A DNA stretch of 63,020 nt, the filler included. It is 5 parts of 5 records of this genome, joined end to end, with 100 filler letters (N's around TTAATTAATTAA, not from the genome) between each part and the next. Parts side by side here need not be neighbours in the genome. Positions count along the whole stretch, not along the records: positions 9,278 to 34,463 come from SRR20825019_2349; 4 more parts are not named here. One strand, 5' to 3'. Position 1 is the first letter of the stretch; every line of letters starts with the position of its first letter. The position numbers were made by a program, and so were the translations under genes. The notes beneath the pieces are model-generated. The model ran no database searches. It saw nothing but the letters and a program-made list of their open reading frames with translations, and was not told the origin of the DNA. Positions 8,846-26,730 of the stretch are shown here, in pieces.

Positions 8846-8873
8846 GCTTTATAGTGATGGAATTAAATTTAAA

Positions 8874-9134: not shown

Positions 9135-9144
9135 GATATTCTTT

Positions 9145-9177
9145 TTAATAATATAAATCGTCTGTTCTTAAGTTCAA
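9145..9177 (-). CDS. ftsX: C-terminal fragment of cell-division permease FtsX (truncated by contig end)
   Basis: Reads LNLRTDDLYY-stop, the typical Flavobacterial FtsX C-terminus; synteny with DUF3098-uppP-truB. Confidence 0.65.
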   Translation of the reverse strand: MNLRTDDLYY

Positions 9178-9277
9178 NNNNNNNNNNNNNNNNNNNNNNN
9201 NNNNNNNNNNNNNNNNNNNNNTTAATTAATTAANNNNNNNNNNNNNNNNNNNNNNNNNNNNNNNNNNNNNNNNNNNN
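9178..9277. other. Artificial contig spacer
   Basis: 44 N + TTAATTAATTAA (stops in all six frames) + 44 N. Confidence 0.99.
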
Positions 9278-9303: not shown

Positions 9304-9816
9304 CTAATCTACAGACAAACTAAATAAGTTAATTTTATTCAAGATTAACTTAAGAGCAAAAATTGTAGATTGATCTCTAATTTCATCTCTACTACCTATA
9401 AATTTCTTTTTATAATAGTTTGGCTTAGAATGAGATATAGATACTCCGAAATATACAACCCCCAAGGGTATAAATTTATTTTTTTCTAAATTAGGTCCTG
9501 CATAACCTGTAACTGATACTGCTATATTACTATTTGAAATTTTTTGAGCATTAATAGCCATTTCTAATGCTACTTGTTTAGACACAGAACCATAATTATT
9601 AATAGTTATTTTATTTACTTTAAGTATTTTAATTTTGGCCTGATCTGAATATGTGATAAGCCCAGAATAAAAACATTGAGAAGCACGTGGTACGCTAGTT
9701 AAATAAGAAGAAATCAGACCTCCAGTACAAGATTCTGCTGTTGATATAGAAATATTTTTTTCTAAAGCTTTCTGAATTACTTGATATGCAAGTATAGATA
9801 TTTTTTTATTAAGCAT
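9304..9816 (-). CDS. CinA C-terminal / PncC-like NMN deamidase
   Basis: STAESCTGG, YGSVS..VA.EMA, SVTGYAGP. Confidence 0.9.
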   Translation of the reverse strand: MLNKKISILAYQVIQKALEKNISISTAESCTGGLISSYLTSVPRASQCFYSGLITYSDQAKIKILKVNKITINNYGSVSKQVALEMAINAQKISNSNIAVSVTGYAGPNLEKNKFIPLGVVYFGVSISHSKPNYYKKKFIGSRDEIRDQSTIFALKLILNKINLFSLSVD

Positions 9817-10510
9817 AAATATCAATTAATAAAAAAATAATAGCGTAATGCATTATGCTAGCAAAAATTGCAGCTGCAATATCGTCAATCATTATTCCAA
9901 GTCCTCCTTTTATATTTTTATCTAAATAATTAATAGGCCATGGTTTTAATATGTCAAAAATTCTAAATAAGATTAGTGGTAATATAAATCTATCACATAA
10001 AAATATTATATTTTTATCAATTTTATCTGCAATTCCTGAAGAGCTAATAAAAAACCCAGAGAAAAATGTTAAAACTAAAGTTAATAACTGACCAACTACC
10101 TCATCTATTACAACCTCTTTAGGATCATTATTATTAATTATAGATGAATATTTTGAAGAATATATTACACCTAAAACAAACATAAAAAAAATAATAGTAA
10201 ATAAAGCTAATAATATAGTAAAAAGTTCACTCTCAACTAAAGTAAAATTTGAAAAAGTTATTAGAAATCTGTTACTAGCTAATATTTGAATTAAAAAATA
10301 CCATAATGGAAAACTCATTAATGATGCAATAGTTCCTGGTGCATATTTGATCTTTCCAAGAAAGAAATATGTTACATATAATTCAACTAATATATTACAT
10401 CTATATTTTTCTGAGTCTTTATGATGATTAATACCAGAATTTCTAGTTATATTTTTCTTAAATTTTTTATATTTAAAAATATTACTTAAATAAGATAAAA
10501 ATTTATTCAT
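9809..10510 (-). CDS. pgpA: Phosphatidylglycerophosphatase A
   Basis: APGTIAS, DPKEVVIDEVVGQ, FRIFDILKPWPI, GGLGIMIDD. Confidence 0.94.
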   Translation of the reverse strand: MNKFLSYLSNIFKYKKFKKNITRNSGINHHKDSEKYRCNILVELYVTYFFLGKIKYAPGTIASLMSFPLWYFLIQILASNRFLITFSNFTLVESELFTILLALFTIIFFMFVLGVIYSSKYSSIINNNDPKEVVIDEVVGQLLTLVLTFFSGFFISSSGIADKIDKNIIFLCDRFILPLILFRIFDILKPWPINYLDKNIKGGLGIMIDDIAAAIFASIMHYAIIFLLIDIYA

Positions 10511-10856
10511 GAATACCTAAAAATCCCTTGTATCAAAATAGTAAATTATTTATAGCATTATTAAAATTTAACGCACAAATATTTTTTTATTAAAGATTAA
10601 ATATGCTTAATTTTAAGAACATACTAAAAATATGCAAAAAAGATAGTTTTTAGAATATTTTACTAAATATTTTAAAAAGTTATTAATTAATAGTTATTAA
10701 AAAAATTACGTAGAGATAATTATTTTAGTCCAGTATTTTATATCTATATTTGAAATTATTTATAATTAAATTTCTGTAGTAAATTTCTAAAATATTTTTT
10801 TATAAATAATATGCCATATATAAATCAATTACTGTTTTATTGATATCTTAAAAAGA

Positions 10857-13352
10857 TTATTTATTAGCAGTTTTAGTTGGTATCTGATTTATATTCTTTT
10901 TTAAATTTTTCATTTTATCTTCTACCTTTTCTTTAAAGTTACTATTAATTAGATCATTACTTAATGGCTTATTATGAATCTTTTTAAAGCTTGATTGATA
11001 ATTGCCATATTTATTATCTGCACTGATTACTTCATTATTTTGTATATTATTTTTCATATCACTTATAATATCATTGCTTTTTATATTATATTTTTTATTT
11101 ATGTTATCCTTTAGAATTTCTTCACCTTCTTTATGATTTTTATCAAGATAGTTTAAAGCTTCTTCTTTATTATTAAAAGAATATTTTTCTTGTATTTTTT
11201 CTAAAATATTATCATTCCAATTTTGATCAATTGAATACTGGTTACTATTTATATGAGATAATTGTGACTGAATATTTTTCATATTTTGTAAAGTATGAGA
11301 TTCATCCTTAGCTACTTGCTCTTGCTCTCTCCAAGTTGAATTAATATTTTCAGAAATTGATGAAGAAACTCCTAAAGACTCTCTTGAATCAGTATTTTTA
11401 ATATAATTACGTACATTTTCTAGTGCCTTTTGATAAGATTCAGATTTATTTTGGTTAAAATCCATATTTTTAGAAGTTCCTAAAAATTTTAAATCTATAC
11501 CAGCTTTCATAGAAGATGAGTTATTTATCGAATAATTTTTGCCATTTTGTTGCACCTCTCTCATTGAATCAGAAATTGAACTATTTTCATTTTCACCTAC
11601 ATCTCTTGTTTCTAACCACCTTGTTGCATAATCCTTAATTTGACTTTCTTCTAAAGAAGCTAAATGCCCCTTTCTTTCATTTATAGATTTCAAAATTGAC
11701 TCTTGTTCTTGATATGAATTATTTAACGCAGTTGTTTCAACTAATGAACCCCTAAAATTAGTTGCTAAATTAGTCTGATTTTGATTTAAAAACTCTCCTC
11801 CTTCACTAGAATAAGATACCCTTAATGCACCAGTATTTATACTTCTTGACATATCAAGATTTGCTCCAACATTTTCTTGTGATAATTGTCTATTACCTAT
11901 AGAGACATTATCCATATTTATATTATTATCTACAATAGATGAAGCATTTTGTGAAGTTACTTGACCGAGAGATATATTATCCATCATTCCTTGAAATACT
12001 CTTGATGATTTAGAAATAAATGCCCATGATATTATAGGTATAGTTGAAGCAATTAATTGCATAATTGCATAACTATGAATTAAAATATCTGAATAATGAC
12101 CTTGAGTTAGTTTATTTATTCCTTCATCATATCCAAGCGATGATGTTTTTGCACCTATTATCATTAATCCAATACTATTAATTATTGAAAAAAATATTGG
12201 CCATGTATTTACCCAAATTATAGATTTAAGCCATATTTTAACTATTTCAACTCCACCTTGCAAAAAAGACATAGGAAAAACTACGAATATGCTACTTACT
12301 ATTATTAGGAATATCATTGTTTGAAGTAAAGGAATGAATTCTTCAGATATTTCACCTATAATTAGCCATCCTATAGATTGCTGATATAAACTTTTAGTTG
12401 CATTTATTGATAAAATTTCTGGCCATAATCTTTTATGCCCGGAAGACTCTCTAAAATCATCTAATGATTCTCTGTATGTATTTAACATAATAGATTGTTT
12501 AACCCAATTATGAATATCTAATGACTTTATACTTAAAGCTTTTAATGCATCATTACCTGTTTCTAAATATTTTCTAACTATGTCATTTTTATAATTTTTT
12601 TCATTATTCTTACTATATCCTCCAATATTTAAAATATTTGGCATTTTTGATTCTTTATCTATTTTTTCTAAAATTATTTCTGTAGCCTTTAAACAGCTAT
12701 AAAATTTAACATCCCCGGAGTAATCCTTGTAATATAGCCCAAAATGCTTAGCTATATTTGTTTTCATAAATTCATAAATATTCTTGCTATTTTCTGCATC
12801 AATTCGTTTACCTAGTAAATTACCCATAATCCAAGGCCTTATAAAACATTGTTTTGTATATTCTTTAGCATTAGCAAGAAGTACTGTATCTTGTATCTTT
12901 AAATCTTTTAACTTATAAATAAGTTTAGCTCCATACATAATACCCGATGAAGAGCTTTTAGTGTTTTCAGCTACATTCATATTACTTTCTATTTCTTCAG
13001 ATAAATATCTACTAATTTTTGATGGGATAGAAGAAAAAATTGCAATACCAGAAGGAATATTAGATACTGAATATTGATTCTTATTTGCAACATCTATAAT
13101 TAATATATCTGATTTTGGAGTAAATAAAAAAGTAAAACATAAAAACATAGGAAAAAACCACTCCCTACCAAATATTCCAATATTTGTATGAAATATTGCT
13201 CTTGTAGCTGCCCAAATACCTCCAATAGACATAGATAATTTACCAAGAGAAGTGAAATATTCACTATCACTATTAAATAGTCTTGCAATCCCATTAAAAA
13301 CATCAGCAACAATCTGCCCCTGACCTCCATAAATATAAATGATATTATCCAT
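10857..13352 (-). CDS. traG: F-type conjugative mating-pair stabilisation protein TraG
   Basis: N-terminal IYIYGG...VFNGIA, multiple TM segments, W..TWPIFFSIIN, long polar C-terminus; follows traH. Confidence 0.88.
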   Translation of the reverse strand: MDNIIYIYGGQGQIVADVFNGIARLFNSDSEYFTSLGKLSMSIGGIWAATRAIFHTNIGIFGREWFFPMFLCFTFLFTPKSDILIIDVANKNQYSVSNIPSGIAIFSSIPSKISRYLSEEIESNMNVAENTKSSSSGIMYGAKLIYKLKDLKIQDTVLLANAKEYTKQCFIRPWIMGNLLGKRIDAENSKNIYEFMKTNIAKHFGLYYKDYSGDVKFYSCLKATEIILEKIDKESKMPNILNIGGYSKNNEKNYKNDIVRKYLETGNDALKALSIKSLDIHNWVKQSIMLNTYRESLDDFRESSGHKRLWPEILSINATKSLYQQSIGWLIIGEISEEFIPLLQTMIFLIIVSSIFVVFPMSFLQGGVEIVKIWLKSIIWVNTWPIFFSIINSIGLMIIGAKTSSLGYDEGINKLTQGHYSDILIHSYAIMQLIASTIPIISWAFISKSSRVFQGMMDNISLGQVTSQNASSIVDNNINMDNVSIGNRQLSQENVGANLDMSRSINTGALRVSYSSEGGEFLNQNQTNLATNFRGSLVETTALNNSYQEQESILKSINERKGHLASLEESQIKDYATRWLETRDVGENENSSISDSMREVQQNGKNYSINNSSSMKAGIDLKFLGTSKNMDFNQNKSESYQKALENVRNYIKNTDSRESLGVSSSISENINSTWREQEQVAKDESHTLQNMKNIQSQLSHINSNQYSIDQNWNDNILEKIQEKYSFNNKEEALNYLDKNHKEGEEILKDNINKKYNIKSNDIISDMKNNIQNNEVISADNKYGNYQSSFKKIHNKPLSNDLINSNFKEKVEDKMKNLKKNINQIPTKTANK

Positions 13353-13359
13353 AATAAAT

Positions 13360-14691
13360 CTATCTAATTTTTGCCAAAAAATGCCTTTCTATATGAATAG
13401 CTTTTTTTTCAATTTTATATGCTTTATCCATAAGGTTAATATGCTTTTTTCTCACTATATCTTGAAGCTTTGTTAAACTATCCAAAAATTTTACTATTTG
13501 AATTCCTGATATTTGCTTACCCTCAATACTATTTAATATCATTTTAATCTCTCTTATAACATTATCAAGATAATGTAGCATTAAATATCCAGCAGTTAAC
13601 TCAGAGGATTTATCTATAATGCTCGTACCTGTTACTACTTCAAGAGATAAGTAATTATATACCGGAAAAGCTTCACCAAGAGAACTTAAAAACTCTATCT
13701 CCTCTTTGCTAAAATCAGTATTTTTCATCATTTTTGATTGTAATGATTTTAATTTCTTATTAACTTTTCCTTCATAACTATCTTGATAAGCTATATTTAC
13801 TTGATTATTTTTTTCAATAATTAAGCATTTACTATAAGAATCCTTACACATATACATTGATGCTTCTCCTCCCTTTAGGTGGGAATTATAAGTAGTCTCA
13901 TCAAGTACTAAAGACTCATAAAATCTATTCATACCATACTCATCTACTATAATTGTTCCAGTGATAGACATAGTATCCTCTAATATTTCTTTAGGAATAC
14001 CTGCTTTTTTAGCTGCAACTATAAACAAGTTATATCCAACAGTAAGAAGTTCTTCATTGCTATTCTTTTGAACTTTTTGAGCCTCATTTTTAGATTTCTC
14101 AAAATCTTGGCAAGCTTGTCTTGATTTAAAATAATCTAGGCCAGAATTTTGTAAATTATCTTTACAAACTTCTTCATATAATCTTGTATTTTGAGGTAAT
14201 GCAGTAGTAAATGCTGACTGAACTAATCTACAATCTTCCACTGCAAATTGATTTAACTCCATTGATAAATTTCTTAAATTACTTAACAAAGACTCCATTT
14301 GCGGTGCAAATGTTTTTAATGCTAACTGAAATGCATAGCTAGCTGCTTGAGATCCCAAATTCTGCATTAAATTAACCAGTTCTTTGCTAGACACTAGTGA
14401 AAAGCTTCCAAGATACATATCAATACCAGAACATCCCATGCGAAGTGCTGGAGGAGTTATGCTAAAAGGTTTAAAAGTTGATGGTTTAGTTCTTAAACTA
14501 AACCCTCCAAGAGTATAATAGTCAGCAGCTTGATCATGAAATGATTTTGGTTTTGTATAATTAATATCAAGCTTACTAAAAACATCATCTATCCTCCAAG
14601 CACTTGCATTATTAATAGTAAAATTAGCAAAGATTATATAAATTATTGTTTGATTAATTAGTAATTTAATCATTAATAATACCCTTATCAT
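13360..14691 (-). CDS. traH: F-type pilus assembly protein TraH
   Basis: PP.L.MGCSGIDMYLGSFS, YAFQLALKT..PQ. Confidence 0.93.
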   Translation of the reverse strand: MIRVLLMIKLLINQTIIYIIFANFTINNASAWRIDDVFSKLDINYTKPKSFHDQAADYYTLGGFSLRTKPSTFKPFSITPPALRMGCSGIDMYLGSFSLVSSKELVNLMQNLGSQAASYAFQLALKTFAPQMESLLSNLRNLSMELNQFAVEDCRLVQSAFTTALPQNTRLYEEVCKDNLQNSGLDYFKSRQACQDFEKSKNEAQKVQKNSNEELLTVGYNLFIVAAKKAGIPKEILEDTMSITGTIIVDEYGMNRFYESLVLDETTYNSHLKGGEASMYMCKDSYSKCLIIEKNNQVNIAYQDSYEGKVNKKLKSLQSKMMKNTDFSKEEIEFLSSLGEAFPVYNYLSLEVVTGTSIIDKSSELTAGYLMLHYLDNVIREIKMILNSIEGKQISGIQIVKFLDSLTKLQDIVRKKHINLMDKAYKIEKKAIHIERHFLAKIR

Positions 14692-15472
14692 AATTATAAA
14701 TATTTATAATATTACTCATAATTTTTGATATATCTGAAATACCTATTGTTATAGGATAAATTTTTATTCCATCCTTATGAAGTAAAAATAATGCTGGCGA
14801 TATAAGTTTTGGATTTATTTTTCTAATAATATTATTTTCTTTTTTAGCTATAAAATTTCCGTATTTATATGAATTATCTGATATCACTAAAATCTTAAAA
14901 GAAGTTATTTCAAATAATTCATTAATAATTTCTAAAAAACTGCTTGAGAACAAACATCCTTTTTTTACATATAATACTAGCCCCCAATTTTTAGATATTT
15001 CTTTAAGTAATTCTATATCATTTTTTTCTTTTTCAGTTCTTAAAATTTTTCTATGTAATATATTAGGATTATCTATTTCATTATTGTTTTTCATACTGAG
15101 CATACTTGCCATTAACCAAATTTTTGAAACTTCACTTGATCTTTTAAAAATCTTTCTTTGAATAGATTGAGCTAAATTTGCATTTTCAATTGTTGGTTTA
15201 TCTAATAATAACTCTAAAGCATTTTCAAAATCTTTTTTAAGTTGTAAATTTCGTGATTTAGCTTCTTTTGATTCTAGCTCTAGTTTATCTCTTTGATTAG
15301 ACTCAGTTTTTCTAACAGTTTTATGATCATAATTTTTATTATCCATTTCATACCATATAAATCCTTTAGGTTTCATGTTTAAGTAATCTGCTTTTATACT
15401 AGTTGCTATAGTTAAAAATAATATAATTTTAAAATCTATTATCTTTATCTTTATTTTTTTCTTATTTAGCAT
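14666..15472 (-). CDS. traF: F-type pilus assembly protein TraF (thioredoxin-like fold)
   Basis: Signal peptide, GFIWY, PT.ENA, GLVLY...C..S, PALFL; position between traN and traH; start probably at 15472. Confidence 0.82.
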   Translation of the reverse strand: MLNKKKIKIKIIDFKIILFLTIATSIKADYLNMKPKGFIWYEMDNKNYDHKTVRKTESNQRDKLELESKEAKSRNLQLKKDFENALELLLDKPTIENANLAQSIQRKIFKRSSEVSKIWLMASMLSMKNNNEIDNPNILHRKILRTEKEKNDIELLKEISKNWGLVLYVKKGCLFSSSFLEIINELFEITSFKILVISDNSYKYGNFIAKKENNIIRKINPKLISPALFLLHKDGIKIYPITIGISDISKIMSNIINIYNYDKGIIND

Positions 15473-17288
15473 CTTTTTGAATTTTAGGTATTTGACCATT
15501 AAATATTTTAGGAAATGGTTTTTTTGCATTAGATGAGGTATTTTTATATATTTCTCCATAAATTTCAGAAAAATCTATTTTATCTAGTTTTATTCTTCCA
15601 ACTTCTTCAATTGATAAGCCTCTACAATTTGGACTGCTTGCACTACCAAAACTCATACCAATCTGCCTTCTACCATGTTCATGAAATAATCTCGATAATT
15701 TAGATGAAAAGCAACAATAGCTTTCAAGCTCTCTTACACAAACTCCAAGTACCCTATTTGCGCAATATGTTCCTACATAATGACATAGATTTTTATCTCT
15801 TTTTTGAGCTAGAATTTTCTCATCACTACTACATTTATGAAGTCCAATAAAGCTACCCCAACCTTTGAATGAAATACAGCAATTGCAAAAATCTAATATA
15901 TGATTACTGCATTTATGTATTTCACCTTTAAATATACTAACGCTACCATTAGATTTGAATTCTTGCTTCATCTCACTAATTGCAGCAAGTTTTGAAACAG
16001 AAGAATAAATATCAGTATTTTTCTTAATTAAGGGCTCATAGCAATTACCTTCAATACAATATATATCACTATGACCCATATCATATTTATTCTTTTCTTT
16101 TACCACCTTACAATTATAAGTTCTCTCCCATTTTAAACATGGATTTTCTCCTTGGATACACTTGCTAGATACGAATTCACAATCATCATTCTTTAAATGG
16201 CTACATCCAGAGGAAGGTTCAAAGATACAACTATAATTTATTTTCTCATGCCAGCATGGCCTTTCTATTTTTATTTCATCATATTGCCTATAACCATTTT
16301 CTATACATGTGCGGTTTATTTCTTGGCAATTACTATTTTCTAATAATTTTTCATCATTACTATTTATAGTCTCTTTATATTCTTTACTTATAAAATCTTG
16401 ATCATATGTGTCGTGATTATATTTTATTAATAATACATGACTTGGTATAGTTCCATTAATTAAAACATTATTTTTATTTTTTACAATCTCAACAACGTTG
16501 TAATCTTTTACTCTACTAAATAAAATATTATGCTTTTTATTGTTAAGCACATCAATATTTGAAAAAAATTTATCAATATTTTTGTTTATTACTTTCAAAT
16601 TAGCTTCATATAGTGGCTTTCCAAGGAAAATATATGAAATAAAGCTTGTGTTTACAGAATCGGGAATATAAGTATGGATATTTGTTGTTTTAAATTTACG
16701 CTTCTTGAGCTCTAATATTAATTTACGCTCTATTTCTATATTTATTTCAGAACCTTCTATGCATTTCTTTATATTACCTTCAGTTTCATAAAATGATGTA
16801 ACTTCTGCTTTATTATCTATTACCTTTAACGCATCTGTTTCTATTTTATTAGAATCTTTTAGTAATTTATTATCATTATTTATCTGATATTCCTGATATG
16901 CCTCATCTTTTCTTTGATTACTTAGATTAAGAAAATCTTCTTTTGTTAAACCTTTACTTAAAATACTATCTTTTTTACTAATTTCTTTTGACTTAAACTG
17001 CATTTTATCAAGCATATGTTTTGTATAAGTTTTTCTTTGGTTTCTTTCTTCATCTATTGATAATGATTTATAATCTTTAATGGACATATCTTCAATTGAA
17101 GTATCATTTAAATCTTTTAAATATCTTATATCTCCATCTTTAATAATATCTTTAAACTGAGCATCTCTAGGATTTGATAATTTCACTCCATTTTTTGAAA
17201 ATTCTTTACCTAGGTTATAACTATCTGAATTATTATATGCAAAACTCGGAAAAATTTTTAAAACAAATATGATTAGTAATAATTTCAT
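15462..17288 (-). CDS. traN: F-type mating-pair stabilisation adhesin TraN
   Basis: Cys-rich C-terminus: IFKG...KC, NCC, CHYVGTYC, YCCFSSKLSR...GRRQ, CRGLS, IDFSE. Confidence 0.94.
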   Translation of the reverse strand: MKLLLIIFVLKIFPSFAYNNSDSYNLGKEFSKNGVKLSNPRDAQFKDIIKDGDIRYLKDLNDTSIEDMSIKDYKSLSIDEERNQRKTYTKHMLDKMQFKSKEISKKDSILSKGLTKEDFLNLSNQRKDEAYQEYQINNDNKLLKDSNKIETDALKVIDNKAEVTSFYETEGNIKKCIEGSEINIEIERKLILELKKRKFKTTNIHTYIPDSVNTSFISYIFLGKPLYEANLKVINKNIDKFFSNIDVLNNKKHNILFSRVKDYNVVEIVKNKNNVLINGTIPSHVLLIKYNHDTYDQDFISKEYKETINSNDEKLLENSNCQEINRTCIENGYRQYDEIKIERPCWHEKINYSCIFEPSSGCSHLKNDDCEFVSSKCIQGENPCLKWERTYNCKVVKEKNKYDMGHSDIYCIEGNCYEPLIKKNTDIYSSVSKLAAISEMKQEFKSNGSVSIFKGEIHKCSNHILDFCNCCISFKGWGSFIGLHKCSSDEKILAQKRDKNLCHYVGTYCANRVLGVCVRELESYCCFSSKLSRLFHEHGRRQIGMSFGSASSPNCRGLSIEEVGRIKLDKIDFSEIYGEIYKNTSSNAKKPFPKIFNGQIPKIQKDAK

Positions 17289-17719
17289 TTCGGCCCTTTG
17301 CTTTGAAATATTTTAAAAGCCTCAACTAAAGATATATTCCCTTTTATCTTATATATATAATTATTTTTAATCATTATTATTACAGGAACTTCTTTTATTC
17401 CATATTTCTCAAACAAAATTGGGTTTATATCATAACTAATTTTTAACCTCTCTGAATATTTCTTAGTTTCTATAAAGGAGTTATTATATAGTCCTTTCAT
17501 TACCAATTTTGCCCCATATTTTAGTGATTCTTTATAATAATTTTTAAGATTGTTATCTCCTATAGAATAAGATATAAAGATGTAGCATATTTTCTTATCA
17601 TTATATGAATTAACCTTGTTTATTTTAGAACTAAAAACAAATATAAGTATAATTACATTAACAAAAACATTATAAATAACTACTTTAGCTCTACTAATTA
17701 TTACATTTAGATAAGACAT
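17285..17719 (-). CDS. trbC: F-type pilus assembly protein TrbC
   Basis: FISYSI...L, LVMKGL, INPILFEKYGIKEVP, GNISL..A. Confidence 0.88.
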   Translation of the reverse strand: MSYLNVIISRAKVVIYNVFVNVIILIFVFSSKINKVNSYNDKKICYIFISYSIGDNNLKNYYKESLKYGAKLVMKGLYNNSFIETKKYSERLKISYDINPILFEKYGIKEVPVIIMIKNNYIYKIKGNISLVEAFKIFQSKGPK

Positions 17720-17765
17720 TTATATTTGTATATATAACTAATTTATAATTTTTATAACAAATTAC

Positions 17766-17794
17766 TTGCGTATTTACAAATTAATTATTATAAA
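17766..17794 (+). promoter_or_regulatory. Putative sigma70 promoter for the traL operon
   Basis: TTGCGT-17 nt-TATAAA, 27 nt upstream of the traL ATG, in the 102-nt divergent gap. Confidence 0.45.
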
Positions 17795-17821
17795 TTCATT
17801 AAATAAATTACAAATAACAAT

Positions 17822-18124
17822 ATGAATGAAAAACAGAAGCTGTTTTGGGCTATGTCTATGCCTTTAAAATGGTTAGGTTTAACAATAGATGAATGGTTTA
17901 TTATATTTTCTGGATTTATACCTGGTATAGTTTTGATTAACTCATCAAAAGTAAAATACGGAATTATATCAATAACAATATCAACTATTTTATGCATTAG
18001 TTTTAAAAAATACAAAAACTTATCTAATTACTTCCTTTTTAAAAGCTGGCTTTTATCTAAAGGATTAATCCCACCTCCCTCTAAAAATTATCCAAATATG
18101 TTACATAAAATGGTAGGGAAATAA
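17822..18124 (+). CDS. traL: T4SS protein TraL (VirB3-like)
   Basis: P.KWLGLTIDEW, two TM helices, ~100 aa, first gene before traE. Confidence 0.85.
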   Translation: MNEKQKLFWAMSMPLKWLGLTIDEWFIIFSGFIPGIVLINSSKVKYGIISITISTILCISFKKYKNLSNYFLFKSWLLSKGLIPPPSKNYPNMLHKMVGK

Positions 18125-18126
18125 TA

Positions 18127-18681
18127 ATGAATTTTATTTTTAGGCAGGACTCATTAATAAGTATAGCTAAATATAATCAAAGACTAGTTATAATTTGTTT
18201 ATTCTTAAGCTTCTCACTTTTAATTTTATGTGTTAAAACTCTAACAAAAAATGAAAAATGGATTTTAGTTCCTTCATCTCATATTGATAAAAGAATAGAG
18301 ATTTATTCAAAAGGATATTCTGAATCTTACTTAAAAGAATGGGCATCATATGTTATGCACACATTAATGACTACTTCTCATGATACTATAAATAGACAGA
18401 TAGAAGAAATTAAGAATATATCTAGCAGTAGTCACGCACTTGATAATTACTTTATTAAACTAAAAAATTTTATACAAGGATCTAATATCCAATCTGTTTA
18501 TTTTCCAAAAAAAATAACTGTTTACAGTGATAATGTATTAGTTGAAGGATTATTCAGGTACTGGATGGGATCCTCTGATAAAAATATTTCTCAAGAAAAA
18601 TCATATAGACTTTATTTCAAAAGAAGTATTAATGATTTACTCTTACTTATTAAAATAGAAGAGGATTTAAATAATGCCTAA
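18127..18681 (+). CDS. traE: T4SS protein TraE
   Basis: N-terminal TM, ILVP, YS.SYL.EWA, SVYFPK; position after traL. Confidence 0.85.
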   Translation: MNFIFRQDSLISIAKYNQRLVIICLFLSFSLLILCVKTLTKNEKWILVPSSHIDKRIEIYSKGYSESYLKEWASYVMHTLMTTSHDTINRQIEEIKNISSSSHALDNYFIKLKNFIQGSNIQSVYFPKKITVYSDNVLVEGLFRYWMGSSDKNISQEKSYRLYFKRSINDLLLLIKIEEDLNNA

Positions 18682-19048
18682 ATTTAAGTGCCAAATAGTT
18701 ATATCTCTATTTATATTCATTCTTTTAAACAATATGAAATATATAACTTCTTATGATAAATTGCTAAAAATACAAATTTCAGAATTAGCACCAACTCGCA
18801 TTATATTTGATGCACAAAAAATTGTTGATGTTTTTTACTATCCAGAAAACGCAGCCAAAGTTATTCTCCATAGAACTGGTGCTGTTTTTGTAATTCCTAA
18901 TAAATCTAATTCACATATTTATCTAACTTTAATTAATGAGTCTGGCCATGCACAAGATTTAAGGCTTAAATTCTCTTACATGCAGCCAGAACCAATTACA
19001 CTTAAATTAGATAATAATTCATTTTCAACAAGCAAAGGTAAATTATGA
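18674..19048 (+). CDS. traK: Short TraK-like protein (N-terminal domain only)
   Basis: IS...PTRIIF....I.DV, G.VFV.P, L.L..ESG...DL.L; position after traE. Confidence 0.7.
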   Translation: MPKFKCQIVISLFIFILLNNMKYITSYDKLLKIQISELAPTRIIFDAQKIVDVFYYPENAAKVILHRTGAVFVIPNKSNSHIYLTLINESGHAQDLRLKFSYMQPEPITLKLDNNSFSTSKGKL

Positions 19049-19383
19049 AATATAAATTAAATAAAATTTTAATATCTATTTGTAGAGTTATTATAAAAAT
19101 AAAAGGCAAAATATCCTTAACAAATATTACAGCTACTTTATTTATAATGAACTGCCTGATAGGAATTGAAAATATATTTGCCATAAGTTTAGAAAGTCAG
19201 CTAGATACTATCAATCATCTGACAACAGGTAAAATAAAAATGTATGGCGTAAGCGGTGCTACTATTGCTGGTGGAATCTGGTCCCTTGTTAGAGGTAACA
19301 TCAAGCTTACTGGTGTTATTGTACTGATTGGAATAGTACTTGGATTTTATCTTGATTGGATCCAAGGGGGCATGAAAATTTAA
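19045..19383 (+). CDS. Candidate F-type propilin (TraA/VirB2-like)
   Basis: Basic/hydrophobic leader of about 46 aa ending ...NIFA, then about 66 aa with two Gly-rich hydrophobic helices split by RGNIK. Confidence 0.55.
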   Translation: MKYKLNKILISICRVIIKIKGKISLTNITATLFIMNCLIGIENIFAISLESQLDTINHLTTGKIKMYGVSGATIAGGIWSLVRGNIKLTGVIVLIGIVLGFYLDWIQGGMKI

Positions 19384-19385
19384 TA

Positions 19386-20633
19386 ATGGATTTTAAAAGA
19401 ATAAAGGAAGAATTTATAAACTTCTATAAAGTAAATCCTGTACCAATATTTTTTATAGTAGGAGCTTCTGCTGCTTCAATATTTTGGTTATTTGGCTATA
19501 AAACTAGTAATTATAACCAAGATATAAATATAAATAAGATTGAAAAACCTCCTATAGAAGGTATTGAATCAGCAGTTGATCCAAGAGATTTATGGGCAGA
19601 TAAAATCAGCAATCAAATTAATGATATTTCAAGCAAATTTCAAAATATTATTGATAGTAAACATAATATCATTTCAAGTGAGATAGATAACTTAAAGAAT
19701 GAAATAGCAGAAATAAAAAAAAATCAAAAACAAATTGAAAGCAGCAAAAATAACATTGATGCTAATCAAAATAAAATATTAGATAATCATGAAATAAATA
19801 TTAAAAATAAAACAAATAAAATTAATGATGCAGAAATATCAAAACCAAATATTGCACATTTATTCTTAAATATGGATAATGAACCTGAAAAATCTACTGA
19901 TAATTATGTAACATCAGGTTCATTTGCAAGAGCTGTTTTACTTACAGGGGTAGTCGCTGAAACTAGTATAGAAGCCCAAAGTTCTCCACAGCCAATTTTG
20001 CTTCGTATAGTAGATCATGGAATTTTTTCAAAAGGATATAAAACAAAACAAATTAAAGAAGCTATTGCAATAGGTTCTTGCTATGGAAATATTGCTTCAG
20101 AAAGAGCAATTTGTAGACTCGAGTCAATATCTTTGTTAAATAAAGATCAAGAAATAATAGAAAGAAATATAGAAGGCTGGATAATTGGTGAGGATGGTAG
20201 ACATGGAATTAAAGGTGAGGTTGTAGATAAATCTTCAAAAGTTACCAAAATGGCAATATTAAATGGAATACTAGGAGGAATTGCTGGATATTTCCAAAAC
20301 CAAGCAAATCAAGCTATATATCCTATTTCACCAATAACAGGTCCAAGTAAAGCCTTAAAAGGCATTGAATCTATCAAATCAGGTACTTCCTCAGGAGTTG
20401 GAAATGCCCTGCAAAAACTTGCTGATTATGCAATAAAAAGAGCAGAGCAATTGAATCCTGTAATATTAGTAGGATCTGGTAGAATTATAGATATAGTATT
20501 TAGAAAAGGTTTTATATTAAAAGAGCAAAATAAAGAAAATATTAGCTCTCTTGAGAATACTAATCTTAAGGAAAATATAGTCACAAATCATAATTTCAAT
20601 CAAATCAGTAAAGAACAGGGTAATGAGTATTAA
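19386..20633 (+). CDS. traB: T4SS core protein TraB (VirB10-like)
   Basis: TM, coiled coil, YV.SGSFARAVLLTGV, G.CYGNIASERAICRLE, GEDGRHGIKG. Confidence 0.93.
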   Translation: MDFKRIKEEFINFYKVNPVPIFFIVGASAASIFWLFGYKTSNYNQDININKIEKPPIEGIESAVDPRDLWADKISNQINDISSKFQNIIDSKHNIISSEIDNLKNEIAEIKKNQKQIESSKNNIDANQNKILDNHEINIKNKTNKINDAEISKPNIAHLFLNMDNEPEKSTDNYVTSGSFARAVLLTGVVAETSIEAQSSPQPILLRIVDHGIFSKGYKTKQIKEAIAIGSCYGNIASERAICRLESISLLNKDQEIIERNIEGWIIGEDGRHGIKGEVVDKSSKVTKMAILNGILGGIAGYFQNQANQAIYPISPITGPSKALKGIESIKSGTSSGVGNALQKLADYAIKRAEQLNPVILVGSGRIIDIVFRKGFILKEQNKENISSLENTNLKENIVTNHNFNQISKEQGNEY

Positions 20634-20847
20634 TAAATATTTAACATATTATTTATTTATACTGATAAATTTATCAGGATGTCAATTTTCTTTCCCTTAT
20701 AAGGAAGATTTTGATTGTAAAGTACCAAGTGGGAATCATTGTAAATCACTTTATGAAATAAATAAAAATGCTGATAGAGGCTTATATTCACCTATTGATA
20801 TTGATTCTTATTGTAATAATTTAAATTTTTATGAAGGCCAAAACTAA
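20623..20847 (+). CDS. traV: Lipoprotein TraV (VirB7-like)
   Basis: LSGC lipobox, FDCKVPSG.HCKSL.E. Confidence 0.88.
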   Translation: MSINKYLTYYLFILINLSGCQFSFPYKEDFDCKVPSGNHCKSLYEINKNADRGLYSPIDIDSYCNNLNFYEGQN

Positions 20848-23335
20848 TCAAGATTTTAGTAGGGAAAGATTATCGAATCATTTTGTATATGAAAGTTTTG
20901 ATGAAAAAAATCATTTATTTTTTAATAGAGGCTCAATAGGTTTTGTGCTTCATGGATTACCACTTGTAGGAACTACAATTTATGCTCAAAATGAAATATC
21001 TGAATATTTAAAAGAAGAAAGTAATATTCCAAAAGGATCTAGCATGCAAGTTGCCATGATTGGTACTTCAAATATTGATTTATATTTAAAAAATTGGTCC
21101 TCATTAAGAAAAGATGAAATATTTAAAACTCTAGCTAGTTATAGAACTGAATTTTTAAAAAAGCTTGCTTCTGATAGTGGTATAATTAAAGATGTATTTT
21201 TATTAATCAGTATCACAATACCCACAAAAAAATTTAATGCAGAAAATATAATAAATATATTAAAAAAAAGGGATATTTTAAAAAATACCTTAAAATCAAT
21301 TGGTCTCATAACATATAATGTAGATAGTAGATATTTATTTTTAGTAATCAGAGATTTTTTAGAGCATCAAAGAGAATATAACCAAGATCTCAACCATCAT
21401 GAAACCTTATCATCACAACTGATAGATGGTGATTTCAAAATGGAAGTAGAAAGTGATATGCTAACTATTCATAATGATAATAAACAAAAATCTATAGTAG
21501 CACTTGAGGTAGCTAATAATAAAGAATCAAGACCATCTTTATGGTCCTTGCCCTTAATGGATTTATTTTTAGGAGATGAGCTTAAAAAAGATGAACAAAT
21601 AAAATCAGATTTTATAATATCATTTACATTAGAAATACTTGATAAACAATCATTAGAATTATCTAAAACCATAGCTAAAAGAGAAACTCTTGCAAAAAAC
21701 ATAAAATCTGGTTTAAGTAAATGGATACCAGGGCTTGAAGAGGAATATAATGATATAAATGATTCTTTAAAAGAACTTCAAGCTGGATCTAGAGCTGTGA
21801 TAATCAATCAAAATGTTATTTTAAAAGATAATAAAAATATTATATATGAAAGAGTACAAGAATATAGATCTATGCTTAGAAGAGCAGGTTTTAACTTTAT
21901 TCCTTGTAGTTTTGATCACTTACCAGTTTTTCTATCTTGTCTACCAATGCAAACAGTAGAAATGCATGATGGAGTTTTTAAATCTAATATTAAAGGTCTT
22001 TCTAAGGATTTATACTATTTAGGCAGAGGAATAAAAACTGTATCTTCTGAAAGTAAAGCTATACTTCCAATAATTGGTGAATGGAAAGGAGATTTAAGAT
22101 CTCCTGGTTTTATTCTATCTGGAAGAAGAGGACAAATTATGTACTGGTCTCCTTTTGGGCCTGCTTTTATTCCAGGAAATAAATATTCTTCATCATCTAA
22201 TGAAAATTTTAATCTTTGCATAGCTGGAGTTCCCGGATCTGGCAAATCAGTATTTATGCAAGAATTAATGATTTCAACTATTGGAATTGGAGGCAAAGTT
22301 TTTGTTCTAGACTATGGAAGATCCTTTAAACATACATGCCAAATTTTAAAAGGAAGTTATATTGAGTTTGATATTAAAAATCCAATATCATTAAACCCAT
22401 TTTCAGAAGTATCAGAAAAAGAAGAAGATCATGAATCGAGAGAAGATGCATTATCTTCGATTGCAACAGTTATTAATAGTATGGCAGCACCAATTCATGG
22501 TACAACAGATCTCCAAAATGCAATGATACAAAAAGCAATAAGAGGTGTATGGAAAGAAAAAAAATCTAAAAGTGAAATAACAGATATAGCAAGCTGGCTA
22601 TTAAGAAGAAATGAAACTTATGCAAAAGATCTTGGTAATATGTTATTTCCATTTACAAGAGAAGGTATATATGGGCAATTTTTTAAAGGTAAAGCAAATT
22701 TATCTTTAAATCATAACATAGTGGTAATAGAAACAGATCATTTAAGAAATATTCCTGCCCTACTTACTGTAATAGTGCAAATGATGATAGTGCATATTAA
22801 TCAAACAATGGTAAAAGGTGACAGAAAATATCCATCTTTAATTATGATAGATGAGGCTTGGAAGCTACTTCAAGGCAAATCCTCTGGAGCATTTATTGAA
22901 GAGGCTGGAAGAATAGCTAGGAAATATAAAGCATCAATTACATTAGCAACTCAACAATTAACTGATTATTTTAGAAGTGAATCTCCTGCTGCTGAGAAAG
23001 CATTTGAGAATTCAGCATGGAAAGTAATTTTAAAGCAAAATCCAGAGAGCTTAATAGCTATGAGAAACAATCCTAAACTCAAGGCATTTGTTAATGATGA
23101 TTATCAGCTTAAATTAATGCAATCAGTAAGTTCAAATCCACCAGAATATAGTGAAATGGCAATTTATGGTATGGATGTTAAATGTATTATTGCAAGGTTA
23201 ATGCTTGACCCTTTTACACTTTTACTCACTTCAACGAATCCTGAAGAATATACAGAATTAGAAAAAAATATAAATAATGGAATGAGCGTTACAGATTCTA
23301 TAAAAAAAATACTAAATAATAAAAATAAAATTTAG
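20831..23335 (+). CDS. traC: T4SS ATPase TraC (VirB4-like)
   Basis: Walker A GVPGSGKS, VLDYGRSF, Walker B IMIDEAW, ARKY...LATQ. Confidence 0.96.
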   Translation: MKAKTNQDFSRERLSNHFVYESFDEKNHLFFNRGSIGFVLHGLPLVGTTIYAQNEISEYLKEESNIPKGSSMQVAMIGTSNIDLYLKNWSSLRKDEIFKTLASYRTEFLKKLASDSGIIKDVFLLISITIPTKKFNAENIINILKKRDILKNTLKSIGLITYNVDSRYLFLVIRDFLEHQREYNQDLNHHETLSSQLIDGDFKMEVESDMLTIHNDNKQKSIVALEVANNKESRPSLWSLPLMDLFLGDELKKDEQIKSDFIISFTLEILDKQSLELSKTIAKRETLAKNIKSGLSKWIPGLEEEYNDINDSLKELQAGSRAVIINQNVILKDNKNIIYERVQEYRSMLRRAGFNFIPCSFDHLPVFLSCLPMQTVEMHDGVFKSNIKGLSKDLYYLGRGIKTVSSESKAILPIIGEWKGDLRSPGFILSGRRGQIMYWSPFGPAFIPGNKYSSSSNENFNLCIAGVPGSGKSVFMQELMISTIGIGGKVFVLDYGRSFKHTCQILKGSYIEFDIKNPISLNPFSEVSEKEEDHESREDALSSIATVINSMAAPIHGTTDLQNAMIQKAIRGVWKEKKSKSEITDIASWLLRRNETYAKDLGNMLFPFTREGIYGQFFKGKANLSLNHNIVVIETDHLRNIPALLTVIVQMMIVHINQTMVKGDRKYPSLIMIDEAWKLLQGKSSGAFIEEAGRIARKYKASITLATQQLTDYFRSESPAAEKAFENSAWKVILKQNPESLIAMRNNPKLKAFVNDDYQLKLMQSVSSNPPEYSEMAIYGMDVKCIIARLMLDPFTLLLTSTNPEEYTELEKNINNGMSVTDSIKKILNNKNKI

Positions 23336-23380
23336 ATTTATATTAAAAATTATGATTCATAAAATATGATTTAAAAAATT

Positions 23381-24190
23381 ATGTTATATATTTTTTCTAA
23401 AGAAATTCATAATTTGAAACTAACTAGCTATATGAAGGGCTATATATTTAATAATTTGTTAATTCAAAATTTTAGAAATATATTTTATATATGTCTAGTT
23501 ACATTTTATCAAAATAACCTTCAAGCTTCTTCAGTTACTGTAAATTTTAATTCATTTAAAAATGGTTATAATATTTATAATAAATTTTATAATAATATAT
23601 CTAATAATCATACTTCCTTTAATTGCAAAAAAGAAATTTCTGGTAAAAAAACTTTACTTGATTATGGAAGAGTTGGTCATTTATTTAGAATTCAAGAAGA
23701 ATCTTTACTTGATTATATTCAATCAAAATTAAGGCAAGCTAAAAAATTAGATAATTTAGTAGAAAAATTTCAAAATAATGTCAAAAATAAAATATCAAAC
23801 CCTAATAAAATTACTGGCATTCAAAACACCACCCAAGAAAGAGTAATATATTATGATCCAAGCTATACTCAAAAACATGATATCAAGGATAAAACAGGAA
23901 AAATTATAATTAAAAAAAATACTAAAATTAATCCCCTTAAATATATATCTTGGGGCAAGGCTTTAATATTTATAGATGCTCAAGAAAAAAATCAGTTAAA
24001 TTGGGCAGTAAAACAAGATTGTAAAATCATATTAGTTAATGGTAAGCCTCTAGAATTATTTAAAAAATTTAACAGGTGGTTTTACTATGATCAATCTGGA
24101 ATTCTTGTGAAGAAATTTCAAATTAATCAAGTTCCTGCAATAATCAAGCAAGAAGGTTTAAAACTTAAAATCACAGAATTTAAATTATAA
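23381..24190 (+). CDS. traW: F-type pilus assembly protein TraW
   Basis: DYG..G..F.IQE, YYDPS, INPL, IILVNG, YYDQSG.L...F.I..VPA; true start may be downstream. Confidence 0.9.
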   Translation: MLYIFSKEIHNLKLTSYMKGYIFNNLLIQNFRNIFYICLVTFYQNNLQASSVTVNFNSFKNGYNIYNKFYNNISNNHTSFNCKKEISGKKTLLDYGRVGHLFRIQEESLLDYIQSKLRQAKKLDNLVEKFQNNVKNKISNPNKITGIQNTTQERVIYYDPSYTQKHDIKDKTGKIIIKKNTKINPLKYISWGKALIFIDAQEKNQLNWAVKQDCKIILVNGKPLELFKKFNRWFYYDQSGILVKKFQINQVPAIIKQEGLKLKITEFKL

Positions 24191-24229
24191 TTATTTAAAT
24201 AATAATATACCATTTCAATCTATAAATTC

Positions 24230-25231
24230 ATGAATATCAGCTCTTATGTATATAAAATATTTTATCTTTTTATATTTGTAATTATTATTTTTTATAATTC
24301 TAGTAATCTTCAATCATCTTGTGTAGGAAGATTTCTAAATCCACTTACAGATATATGCTTTAAATGTTTATTTCCTATTAAAATTGCAGGAATTTCAGTA
24401 ACTTCTAATCCTTATGAATCATATGATACAGTTGATGATATGAAATTTCCTGTATGTATGTGTAGAGTATATGGCTCGCCTATTCCTGTAGCTGGAATTC
24501 CAGTCTCGTTTTGGGAACCTGCAAGGATCGTTGATGTAACTAAGCATCCATTATGTATGGTCGCACTTGGAGGCTTATCATTTGGAGATTCTATCACTAA
24601 AGGTGTGAAGGATGATATACAAAATACTGCCTTTTACCATGTTCACTTTTATATATATCCTGTTTTATATTGGCTTGAATTACTAACTGATTTTGTTTGC
24701 CTTGAAAAAATGTCGATTGATATTGCTTATTTAACTGAATTTGATCCTCTTTGGAATGATGATGCAAAATCAGCAATTATCAATCCAGAAGCTCTTCTTT
24801 TTGGATCCATACCAGCTCAAACTGCCTGCGCTATGGATTGTACTCAAACAAGTACGGGGCTTAGTAATGATCACTTATTTTGGTGCTCTGGTTGTCAAGG
24901 AAGTTTATACCCTTTTACTGGCAATATCTCAGGTCAAAATGGAGGCATTCATGCTTCTACTTTACTTTTAGGTAGAATGATTGCAAAACTTCATAGAGAA
25001 CTTATATGCCATGGATATACAGGTAAATCTGGTTTATGTGATAAATACCCAATGCCAATAATAAAAAAAAGCCAATATAGATATCAAATGGTATATCCAA
25101 TTCCTGAAACTATAAGTTGTAAAAGAATTGGTCAAACTGAAATTTCTTGGAATTCAGGAAGAGAATATCCTGTTCAAGGAGAGGATTTTGCATATTTAAT
25201 ATGGAGAAAAAGGGATTGTTGTATGTTTTAA
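24230..25231 (+). CDS. traU: F-type pilus assembly protein TraU
   Basis: C.GRFLNPLTDIC..CLFPI, FWEPARIVDV, FYHVH.Y.YP, WRKRDCC. Confidence 0.96.
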   Translation: MNISSYVYKIFYLFIFVIIIFYNSSNLQSSCVGRFLNPLTDICFKCLFPIKIAGISVTSNPYESYDTVDDMKFPVCMCRVYGSPIPVAGIPVSFWEPARIVDVTKHPLCMVALGGLSFGDSITKGVKDDIQNTAFYHVHFYIYPVLYWLELLTDFVCLEKMSIDIAYLTEFDPLWNDDAKSAIINPEALLFGSIPAQTACAMDCTQTSTGLSNDHLFWCSGCQGSLYPFTGNISGQNGGIHASTLLLGRMIAKLHRELICHGYTGKSGLCDKYPMPIIKKSQYRYQMVYPIPETISCKRIGQTEISWNSGREYPVQGEDFAYLIWRKRDCCMF

Positions 25232-25350
25232 AATAGTAGAAATAATAATATGGTTAAATATTATTTTAGAAATATGTTGTTTTTACTCTTTTAATTATAT
25301 GAATAATATATTAATATTAGTGAACTACAAATATAACTAAAAGGTAATAT

Positions 25351-25668
25351 ATGGCACAAGATGTAAGTGATGCAAATTTTGAAAAAGAAGTTTTAAACTC
25401 TAGCACACCAGTATTAGTTGATTTTTGGGCTGAATGGTGCGGGCCTTGTAAAATGCTAACCCCTACTATTGATCAGCTTGCCAAAGACATGGAGGGTAAG
25501 GTAAAAGTTGTAAAAATTAATATTGATGAAAATCCAGACTCTCCAACTAAATATGGAGTAAGAAGTATTCCTACTTTAATATTATTCAAAGGCGGTAAGC
25601 AAATAGATACAAAGATAGGTTCTATGCCCCTTGGTTCAATGAAAACTTGGATCGAATCTAATATTTAA
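25351..25668 (+). CDS. trxA: Thioredoxin
   Basis: WCGPC, cytoplasmic (no signal peptide), AAGG RBS-like motif. Confidence 0.97.
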   Translation: MAQDVSDANFEKEVLNSSTPVLVDFWAEWCGPCKMLTPTIDQLAKDMEGKVKVVKINIDENPDSPTKYGVRSIPTLILFKGGKQIDTKIGSMPLGSMKTWIESNI

Positions 25669-25873: not shown

Positions 25874-26572
25874 ATGATAGACAGGATGTTAGACTCATAT
25901 ATATTAGATTACTTAGGTGAACCGATTAAGGTTTCTATAAGAGTAAGTAAAAAATCAAAAAGAGTTGGTATAAAAATTTCTCATTTAGGAGCAGAACTTG
26001 TTCTACCTTCAAGAACTCCATTGGAAGAAGGACTAGTTTTTGTTAGACAAAAAGAACCCTGGATAAGAAAACATGCTAAATATTTTAATCAAGAACCTAT
26101 TAAAAAAGATGATGGGAAAATTTCTATTTTAGGCGCTCAATATCAACTTAAATTAGTAGATTCAGAAAGAAATTTTATACAAGAAAATAATGGAATACTT
26201 GAAATATACTCTAATATTAACAAGTATAAAATTATATTAAATGCATTTTTAAAGCAATTAATCACAAAAGAAATTAATCAACTTGTTATAAATATTACTA
26301 GCCAATATGGATTTTACTTCAATAAAATTCAAGTGAAGGATTTAAAAAGTAAATGGGGAAGTTGTTCTAGTCACAAAAATCTTTCATTTAATTGGCGAAT
26401 AGTTTTTGCACCAAAAGAAGTAGTTCGTTATTTAGTTGTACATGAAATTTGTCATTTAAAAGAAATGAATCATTCTAAAAGATTTTGGAATTTAGTTGAG
26501 CTTATATACCCTGAATATAAAATACACAAAAAATGGCTTAAAATAAATGGTAAATCATTATATTGGCATTAA
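25874..26572 (+). CDS. YgjP/DUF45 (M48/SprT-like) zinc metallohydrolase
   Basis: SKWGSCS, FNWR, YLVVHEICHL.EMNHS..FW. Confidence 0.9.
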   Translation: MIDRMLDSYILDYLGEPIKVSIRVSKKSKRVGIKISHLGAELVLPSRTPLEEGLVFVRQKEPWIRKHAKYFNQEPIKKDDGKISILGAQYQLKLVDSERNFIQENNGILEIYSNINKYKIILNAFLKQLITKEINQLVINITSQYGFYFNKIQVKDLKSKWGSCSSHKNLSFNWRIVFAPKEVVRYLVVHEICHLKEMNHSKRFWNLVELIYPEYKIHKKWLKINGKSLYWH

Positions 26573-26655: not shown

Positions 26656-26730
26656 GGGGATGTAGCTCAGGGGTAGAGCATCTGCCTTGCACGTAGAGGG
26701 TCGGGGGTTCAATTCCCTCCATCTCCACCA
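26656..26730 (+). tRNA. tRNA-Ala (TGC)
   Basis: Acceptor GGGGATG/CATCTCC with G3:U70, anticodon arm TCTGC-CTTGCAC-GTAGA, GTTCAA T-loop, encoded CCA. Confidence 0.97.

Follow-up and report, generated by a model that had tools for sequence, protein, structure and literature searches.

Is a complete F-type type IV secretion system (T4SS) gene cluster that stands among housekeeping genes, away from every gene for DNA transfer, a machine taken over by its host, or one part of a dispersed mobile element? The question is raised by a tra/trb locus on a 63,020-nt stretch of DNA (the window), which consists of five contigs joined by N spacers (9178-9277, 34464-34563, 47197-47296 and 52808-52907). The locus lies on the second of these, contig B, and a preliminary description had presented it as an uninterrupted and vertically kept set of open reading frames (ORFs) lacking a DNA-transfer module. 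Our analyses confirmed that an intact and locally unlinked F-type mating-pair-formation (Mpf) cluster is present, while comparison with related loci suggested that it is a module derived from an amplified genetic element of the Rickettsiales (RAGE), with a locally stripped and inverted architecture. RAGEs shape the genomes of Rickettsia and Orientia.

ORF calling combined with family matches showed that 14 unbroken ORFs fill positions 10857-25231 exactly, as had been described, with 98.6% of the span coding. They comprise 13 recognisable F-type Mpf genes and one small pilin-like ORF, and are given below with their best family matches and the family-conserved columns that they keep; G088, G180 and G029 are related Rickettsiales genomes.

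10857-13352, minus strand: traG, 831 aa; TraG_N, E 4.9e-53; 28 of 31 conserved columns kept
13360-14691, minus strand: traH, 443 aa; TraH, E 7e-70; 33 of 35 conserved columns kept
14666-15559, minus strand: traF, 297 aa, thioredoxin-like pilus assembly protein; Pfam TraF, E 1.6e-21; 16 of 25 conserved columns kept, counted on a small, biased sequence set
15462-17288, minus strand: traN, 608 aa; F_T4SS_TraN, E 1.6e-70
17285-17719, minus strand: trbC, 144 aa; TrbC_Ftype, E 6.4e-15
17720-17821, no strand: 102-nt divergent intergenic region, putative inversion junction, located from the sequence
17822-18124, plus strand: traL, 100 aa; Pfam TraL, E 4.4e-4, under the curated cut-off; 17 of 25 conserved columns kept, counted on a small, biased sequence set; 46-49% identity to the G088, G180 and G029 orthologues
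18127-18681, plus strand: traE, 184 aa; TraE, E 1.7e-17; 12 of 15 conserved columns kept
18674-19048, plus strand: short traK, 124 aa; TraK_N, E 0.042; aligns with the N-domain of relatives' TraK
19045-19383, plus strand: candidate pilin gene, 112 aa; same-place ORF in relatives; family matches TrbC/VirB2 pilin
19356-20633, plus strand: traB, 425 aa; TrbI, E 3.6e-29; PRK13729 TraB, E 1.7e-36; 25 of 29 conserved columns kept
20623-20847, plus strand: traV, 74 aa, lipoprotein-like; TIGR02747, E 1.8e-4 (weak); 50-62% identity to relatives over 26-39 residues
20831-23335, plus strand: traC, 834 aa, VirB4-family ATPase; TIGR02746, E 4e-167; 81 of 82 conserved columns kept
23381-24190, plus strand: traW, 269 aa; TIGR02743, E 7.1e-50 over residues 94-266
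24230-25231, plus strand: traU, 333 aa; TraU, E 1.2e-109; 64 of 65 conserved columns kept

Pfam and NCBIfam name 12 of the 14 ORFs, ten of them clearly (TraG, TraH, TraF, TraN, TrbC, TraE, TraB, TraC, TraW and TraU) and two weakly (TraL and TraV). The F-specific periplasmic and assembly set (TraU, TraW, TraH, TraF, TraN and TrbC) was matched in full, at E values from 6.4e-15 to 1.2e-109, and in the core and inner-membrane set TraB, TraE and TraG were clear, TraL and TraV weak, and TraK represented by its N-domain only. TraC, which scored 557.5 bits against a curated TIGR02746 cut-off of 567.05, carries Walker A (GVPGSGKS, residue 466) and Walker B (LIMIDE, residue 670) motifs, both intact as first reported. 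At the local composition the stop probability is 0.0825 per codon and the mean random ORF measures 12 codons, so the open frames of the cluster are not due to chance; the well-sampled core proteins retain nearly all family-conserved residues. The cluster is also as AT-rich as its surroundings, in agreement with the earlier reading: GC content and GC at third codon positions (GC3) are 26.8% and 15.2% in the tra genes and 26.2% and 14.7% in the housekeeping genes of contig B. TraW has about 90 additional N-terminal residues relative to its relatives, and the frames of traF and traN share 98 nt, so that the true traF start may be further downstream.

The contiguity of the cluster was borne out, but the genes are not one colinear run: traG-H-F-N-trbC lie on the minus strand and traL-E-K-small ORF-B-V-C-W-U on the plus strand, and these two divergent blocks part from the 102-nt spacer at 17720-17821, presumably the site of two divergent promoters. 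A promoter scan was uninformative in this AT-rich contig (153 sites versus 157.6 expected from shuffles), and the terminator-like sites (9 versus 4.6 expected) all fall inside genes. For comparison, 35 loci from genome contigs, 58 from metagenome contigs and stretches of four Rickettsiales genomes were used, several of the loci being the same record from two collections. Of the 57 loci that carry four or more different tra genes, 56 have all of them on one strand, the exception being a decayed region of G029. TrbC or TraN comes next after TraU, on the same strand, in 65 of the 79 loci with at least 800 nt at that place, and the remaining 14 are distant types, remnants or loci with undetected TrbC. 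A single inversion of the L..U block explains how the one operon of the relatives became two divergent operons. No close relative with the synteny of the window was found in the genome-contig and metagenome-contig collections. A further non-canonical order was observed at G189:C45:5948-10132, in a Rickettsiales genome whose TraD_F stands 1.5 kb upstream of TraU and shares its strand.

The affiliation of contig B was approached through a sample of 201 genomes from the order of G002, a Rickettsiales metagenome-assembled genome. The contig B valyl-tRNA synthetase (ValS) is 54-60% identical to that of the best 13 of the 201 Rickettsiales genomes, its identity to the ValS of five Holosporales-type genomes being only 29-30%, and the flank genes are of Rickettsiales type, as is the T4SS. 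These comparisons place contig B in the Rickettsiales, in a bacterium that is uncultured and extremely AT-rich. The ValS-nearest genomes include the TraU-nearest ones, namely G088 (62%), G180 (60%), G064 (61%, a remnant) and G029 (59-65%, broken), while the best TraU matches overall were loci L041 (66%, a partial match) and L040 (59-64%). With the nearest homologues at 45-66% identity, synonymous sites are saturated. The TraU phylogenetic tree, constructed by a quick method, placed the window with L040, a metagenome contig (SH-aLRT 97), as sister to G180 and G088 (98); the four clustered together (97) within a 17-row clade (99) that also contained Holosporaceae and Paracaedibacteraceae rows, and the terminal branch of the window was long (0.5). 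Derivation of the T4SS from Holosporales is weakened, the Rickettsiales copies of G088 and G180 being closer than any Holosporales-type locus.

Its TraU phylogeny, together with a short TraK followed by a small ORF, places the system of contig B among the RAGE-type T4SS. The G088 element to which it is related consists, in order, of an integrase (Phage_integrase and Arm-DNA-bind_3), a leucine-rich repeat protein, traL..traG, TraD, Transposase_31 and a TraA_Ti-like relaxase/helicase (AAA_30, TraI_hel_assoc_N and Toprim_3), and by this gene order is a canonical RAGE; its layout agrees with that given for RAGEs in the available text of PMC4316617 and PMC10732058. G088 (C1:890001-930000) also has a partial second T4SS copy (traL, traK, small ORF, traB, traV and a traC fragment), some 15 kb upstream of its full RAGE copy, and in the full copy traC is in two frames. 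None of the copies examined in the four nearest genomes is free of broken Mpf genes, judged from stop-to-stop frames in which sequencing error is possible: TraC in G088 and G180, TraU and TraB in G029, and remnants only in G064.

The short TraK and the ORF behind it were compared with their counterparts. The window TraK consists of the N-domain without TraK_C, which was seen in six of nine aligned sequences, and orthologous frames in G088, G180 and G029 measure 124-159 aa from stop to stop; the short TraK as a sign of decay was rejected, RAGE-type relatives having a short TraK as well. The 112-aa ORF encodes a leader of about 46 aa followed by two hydrophobic helices with a short basic loop between them. 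It is 45-62% identical to the same-place ORF in G088 (two copies), G180 and G029, and is recognisably related to the small ORF that follows a full-length TraK, with N- and C-domains, in Holosporales-type clusters. Members of the family were located as follows.

L112, 18818-19147: family member of the 112-aa ORF
L115, 6051-6407: family member of the 112-aa ORF
L119, 5518-5847: family member of the 112-aa ORF

Alignment of a 12-sequence profile of the small ORF with TraK by hhalign gave a probability of 0.2%, that is, no relation, and the ORF also occurs beside full-length TraK. Its identity with the missing TraK C-domain was rejected. The same profile found 137 representatives at E<=0.001 among 1.84 billion proteins, 71-190 aa long except for one of 533 aa. 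When the 112-aa sequence of the window and 136 profile-found representatives were scanned, 28 of the 137 matched the Pfam TrbC/VirB2 pilin family (best E 8.6e-6), and no other family matched more than two. The window's own sequence gave no direct family match and no TraA match; the TraK profile had no match among solved structures, and two small-ORF profiles had no pilin match there. The AlphaFold2 model of the 112-aa ORF (mean pLDDT, the predicted local distance difference test, 64.5) contains a helical hairpin at residues 63-107, and a Foldseek search of this model against the Protein Data Bank returned nothing at E<=0.001. By the profile and family matches the small ORF belongs to an independent, widespread family related to the TrbC/VirB2 pilins.

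In the available text of PMC10732058 and PMC4316617, RAGE TraK is described as divided ('split') between an N-terminal and a C-terminal ORF and a pilin gene is not reported, while the part of the 2006 R. bellii paper available to us (PMC1458961) lists unassigned ORFs of 110 aa and 151 aa in this cluster. By position, the second 'split TraK' ORF of the literature would correspond to the pilin-like gene. The 2023 Orientia mobilome paper (PMC10732058, in the text available) leaves open whether pili are made by RAGE F-type machines and which pilin they would consist of, and the small-ORF family provides a candidate for this missing pilin that can be put to the test.

We then considered the genes for DNA transfer and the surroundings of the cluster. 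The flanks had been described as pgpA/cinA on one side and trxA/YgjP on the other, and Pfam matches agreed, traG adjoining pgpA and traU adjoining trxA:

9304-9825, minus strand: cinA, left flank; Pfam CinA, E 1.7e-43
9809-10510, minus strand: pgpA, left flank; Pfam PgpA, E 3.4e-37
10511-10856, no strand: 346-nt AT-rich spacer from pgpA to the traG end; relatives carry a small ORF and traD at this place
25351-25668, plus strand: trxA, right flank; Pfam match
25874-26572, plus strand: gene for a YgjP-like protein, right flank; Pfam match
26656-26730, plus strand: tRNA-Ala(TGC); ARAGORN and Rfam
26915-28471, minus strand: orf518, orphan ORF of 518 aa with 17.5% GC, beside tRNA-Ala and 1.7 kb from traU

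Family scans and tblastn with the proteins of relatives found no TraD, relaxase or integrase on contig B, as the preliminary description had stated. The tblastn search revealed no TraD remnant in the 10511-10856 spacer and, over the whole 63-kb window, no remnant of TraD, integrase, relaxase or other neighbours of the G088 and G180 systems. In relatives TraD follows traG on the same strand in 15 of the 16 loci with at least 2.5 kb at that place, L046 being without TraD within 2.6 kb. The tRNA-Ala gene lies 1.4 kb from traU, with no integrase or integrase remnant there. Repeats on contig B were AT-rich chance matches only, with no att-like repeat and none beyond chance at the junctions. By the RAGE criteria given in the available text of PMC10732058, no transposase or cargo gene (spoT-like, histidine kinase, dam, ankyrin or tetratricopeptide repeat) lies inside the cluster; outside it orf518 is a transposase-like lead.

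That lead is a language-model feature score of 0.96 to transposase and IS4-like clusters, and orf518 is possibly a diverged IS4-like transposase. Neither a Pfam or NCBIfam family nor a homologue at E<=0.001 was found for it, and no sequence search confirmed a suspected likeness of its N-terminal part to IS1634 transposases.

Base rates for linked and unlinked transfer genes were obtained from the same 201 genomes. TraU is present in 31 of them, and a strong TraD_F match was found in 29 of these 31, one as a broken gene only; the two without it, G183 and G197, are both fragmented and about 1 Mb. TraA_Ti-like matches at E<=1e-30, many of which span the helicase part only, occurred in 27 of the 31. 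TraD and TraU stand 412 kb apart in G029 and are separated by 49 kb in G070. Because TraD_F accompanies TraU in 29 of the 31 genomes, sometimes at a distance, an unlinked TraD elsewhere is the default expectation. Our view of the cluster-bearing genome is limited to the 25.2 kb of contig B, the other contigs belonging to other organisms, and as far as this genome is concerned the absence of the transfer genes holds for these 25 kb.

The explanation that we favour, with a chance of being right that we put at about even, is that the locus is the Mpf and pilus-assembly module of a RAGE-type F-T4SS in a Rickettsiales chromosome, whose transfer partners lie elsewhere and which serves the conjugation of a dispersed RAGE or of a plasmid in trans. 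Its products would form an envelope-spanning F-type channel with TraV, TraK and TraB as outer core, an inner-membrane part comprising TraL, TraE, TraG and the ATPase TraC, and TraW, TraU, TraF, TraH, TrbC and TraN in the periplasm. The channel would polymerise the TrbC/VirB2-like pilin into a pilus, and DNA would be transferred only if TraD and a relaxase were supplied from elsewhere, most likely from the unsampled part of the genome, in which case the machine could still conjugate a dispersed RAGE or plasmid in trans. In the available text of PMC13463995 the coupling protein is required for transfer and not for piliation, its deletion leading to hyperpiliation in F and pKM101.

Several observations weigh against this explanation. 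The two-operon arrangement is unique, given the single-strand order of 56 of 57 loci; TraD is absent from its usual position in relatives (after traG in 15 of 16 loci, some of them duplicate records); and the whole window holds no TraD, integrase or relaxase remnant. TraF (16 of 25) and TraL (17 of 25) keep fewer conserved columns, counted on small, biased sets, and the rest of this genome beyond 25 kb is unsampled.

A fully intact RAGE-type Mpf set unlinked from every mobility gene is also the state expected just before decay or domestication. The domestication put forward at the outset is possible, though we consider it rather unlikely: the genome would lack an F-type TraD and a cognate relaxase, and selection would maintain the Mpf-only machine for use as a constitutive pilus or an organelle of adhesion or, less likely, as a coupling-protein-independent exporter or DNA-uptake device. 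In favour of domestication, no TraD, relaxase, integrase or remnant is found locally, GC3 equals that of the host genes, and 14 kb of open frames at 0.0825 stops per codon point to purifying selection until recently; the copies of the four nearest Rickettsiales genomes each have a broken Mpf gene and the window copy has none. F systems without a type IV coupling protein (T4CP) are hyperpiliated (PMC13463995), Mpf systems of the F class (MPF_F) without a relaxase ('MOBless') are recorded in Protochlamydia and an Aquificae (PMC3548315), and the RAGE of plasmid pLbaR has F-T4SS genes only (PMC4316617), in each case going by the available text of the source. Against domestication, the sampled part of the genome amounts to only 25 kb, TraD_F is present in 29 of 31 TraU-bearing Rickettsiales genomes with the two exceptions fragmented assemblies of about 1 Mb, and a coupling protein is still needed by most effector-translocating T4SS. 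The exapted T4SS known so far are presumably P-type or I-type.

Vertical keeping at this position had implied a conserved locus, and none was found in relatives. In G155, G107, G088, G125 and G203, the nearest complete genomes examined (ValS 56-60%), hundreds of kb separate the pgpA, trxA, YgjP and valS genes. The T4SS of G088 is part of a canonical mobile RAGE at about 907-925 kb, far from pgpA (153 kb) and trxA (336 kb), and in G002 the flank genes (pgpA, trxA, YgjP and valS) are on different contigs. This speaks against vertical keeping, weakly, these relatives being distant. A stronger form of domestication is to our mind a shade less probable again: in a deep, extremely AT-rich Rickettsiales lineage, an F-type machine lacking both coupling protein and relaxase would have become fixed in the chromosome, re-wired into two divergent operons, and would serve as a constitutive TrbC/VirB2-like pilus for attachment to the host or between cells, or for another non-conjugative task. 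If the rest of the genome lacks TraD and relaxase, the locus would be a rare F-type exaptation and, if the reading without coupling protein and relaxase is true, the first MPF_F exaptation in an obligate intracellular bacterium.

Decay is usual for RAGEs in the relatives (TraC in G088 and G180, TraU and TraB in G029, remnants in G064), and the inversion and lost linkage of the window mark a disrupted locus, with fewer conserved columns in TraF and TraL. These facts would suit a recently orphaned remnant, a RAGE that lost its ends and TraD by rearrangement and whose genes, without present function, are still open for lack of time. We regard this as improbable: the 14 ORFs contain no stop or frameshift at a stop probability of 8% per codon, GC3 is wholly at the host level, which argues for long residence in the lineage or its close kin, and TraU keeps 64 of 65 conserved columns in spite of its long terminal branch (0.5). 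An assembly artefact, that is, a chimeric contig with inversion and housekeeping flanks produced by mis-joins, is very improbable, for although the assembly is mixed, with at least two organisms, and AT-rich low-complexity spacers lie at all three junctions (10511-10856, 17720-17821 and 25232-25350), it would need three independent mis-joins, composition and GC3 are uniform along contig B, the flank genes are Rickettsiales-type like the T4SS, and the junctions carry no repeats beyond chance.

The cluster was also compared with known systems. The F-T4SS of RAGEs in Rickettsia bellii, R. buchneri, R. massiliae and Orientia tsutsugamushi shares with the window the set L, E, short K, small ORF, B, V, C, W, U, TrbC, N, F, H and G and its streamlined make-up, and the window TraU groups with the RAGE-bearing G088 and G180; the 'split TraK' peculiarity and the lack of a TraA_F pilin are likewise common to both, as far as the available text of PMC10732058 and PMC1458961 goes. 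In contrast to RAGEs, contig B carries neither an integrase nor TraD_F, TraA_Ti/TraD_Ti or cargo genes, and has no end next to a tRNA gene; its operon is inverted into two divergent units, its genes are all intact while the relatives' copies are partly broken, and its GC content is 27% as against about 32% in the relatives' loci. According to the available text of PMC4316617, the pLbaR RAGE of Rickettsia felis LSU-Lb resembles the window in having F-T4SS genes only, without a mobilisation module, but is plasmid-borne and colinear with pREIS3, and its TraK is described as fused. The 14 F-T4SS proteins of pLbaR may include TraD_F.

The F plasmid Tra system of Escherichia coli has orthologous Mpf proteins, and its pilus assembly is independent of TraD (PMC13463995, in the text available). 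Compared with F, the window lacks the TraA_F pilin, TraQ, TraX, TraI, TraM and TraY, its TraK is without the C-domain and its candidate pilin is of TrbC/VirB2 type. The MOBless MPF_F T4SS of Protochlamydia amoebophila and of one Aquificae resemble the window as chromosomal F-type T4SS with no linked relaxase, in an intracellular bacterium (Guglielmini et al. 2012, PMC3548315, in the text available). Chlamydial-type loci L025 and L076 differ from the window in that TraD directly follows TraG and the order is W-TrbC-U. Bordetella Ptl, Helicobacter ComB and Brucella VirB, which we take to be exapted T4SS working without a T4CP, are P-type (MPF_T-like) and not F-type, and resemble the window only by precedent. 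ComB is mentioned in the available part of PMC3548315.

The contigs of the window are of mixed origin, at least two organisms being represented in the 63 kb:

1-9177: contig A, 32% GC
9278-34463: contig B, about 25% GC, bearing the tra/trb cluster
34564-47196: contig C, about 56% GC
47297-52807: contig D
52908-63020: contig E

Contig A is 100% identical to G001:C1:297571-306747, G001 being a 4.5-Mb genome of 32% GC in two contigs and 99% complete. When the 20 kb at the start of contig B (9278-29277) were searched against G001, trxA was the sole match (71%); contig B is therefore an orphan 25.2-kb piece of another organism's genome, unrelated to G001. Composition and GC3 are even along contig B, which beyond orf518 carries valS, ubiA and rmuC. 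Contig C (34564-47196) is without a long ORF, the longest being 334 aa, has short overlapping frames on both strands and gave no Rfam match; it may come from a third organism or a host. At the end of contig B, an ORF cut by the contig end (34029-34463, plus strand) gave no family match and contains an internal repeat of two similar segments of about 60 aa, and could encode a repeat-type secreted protein.

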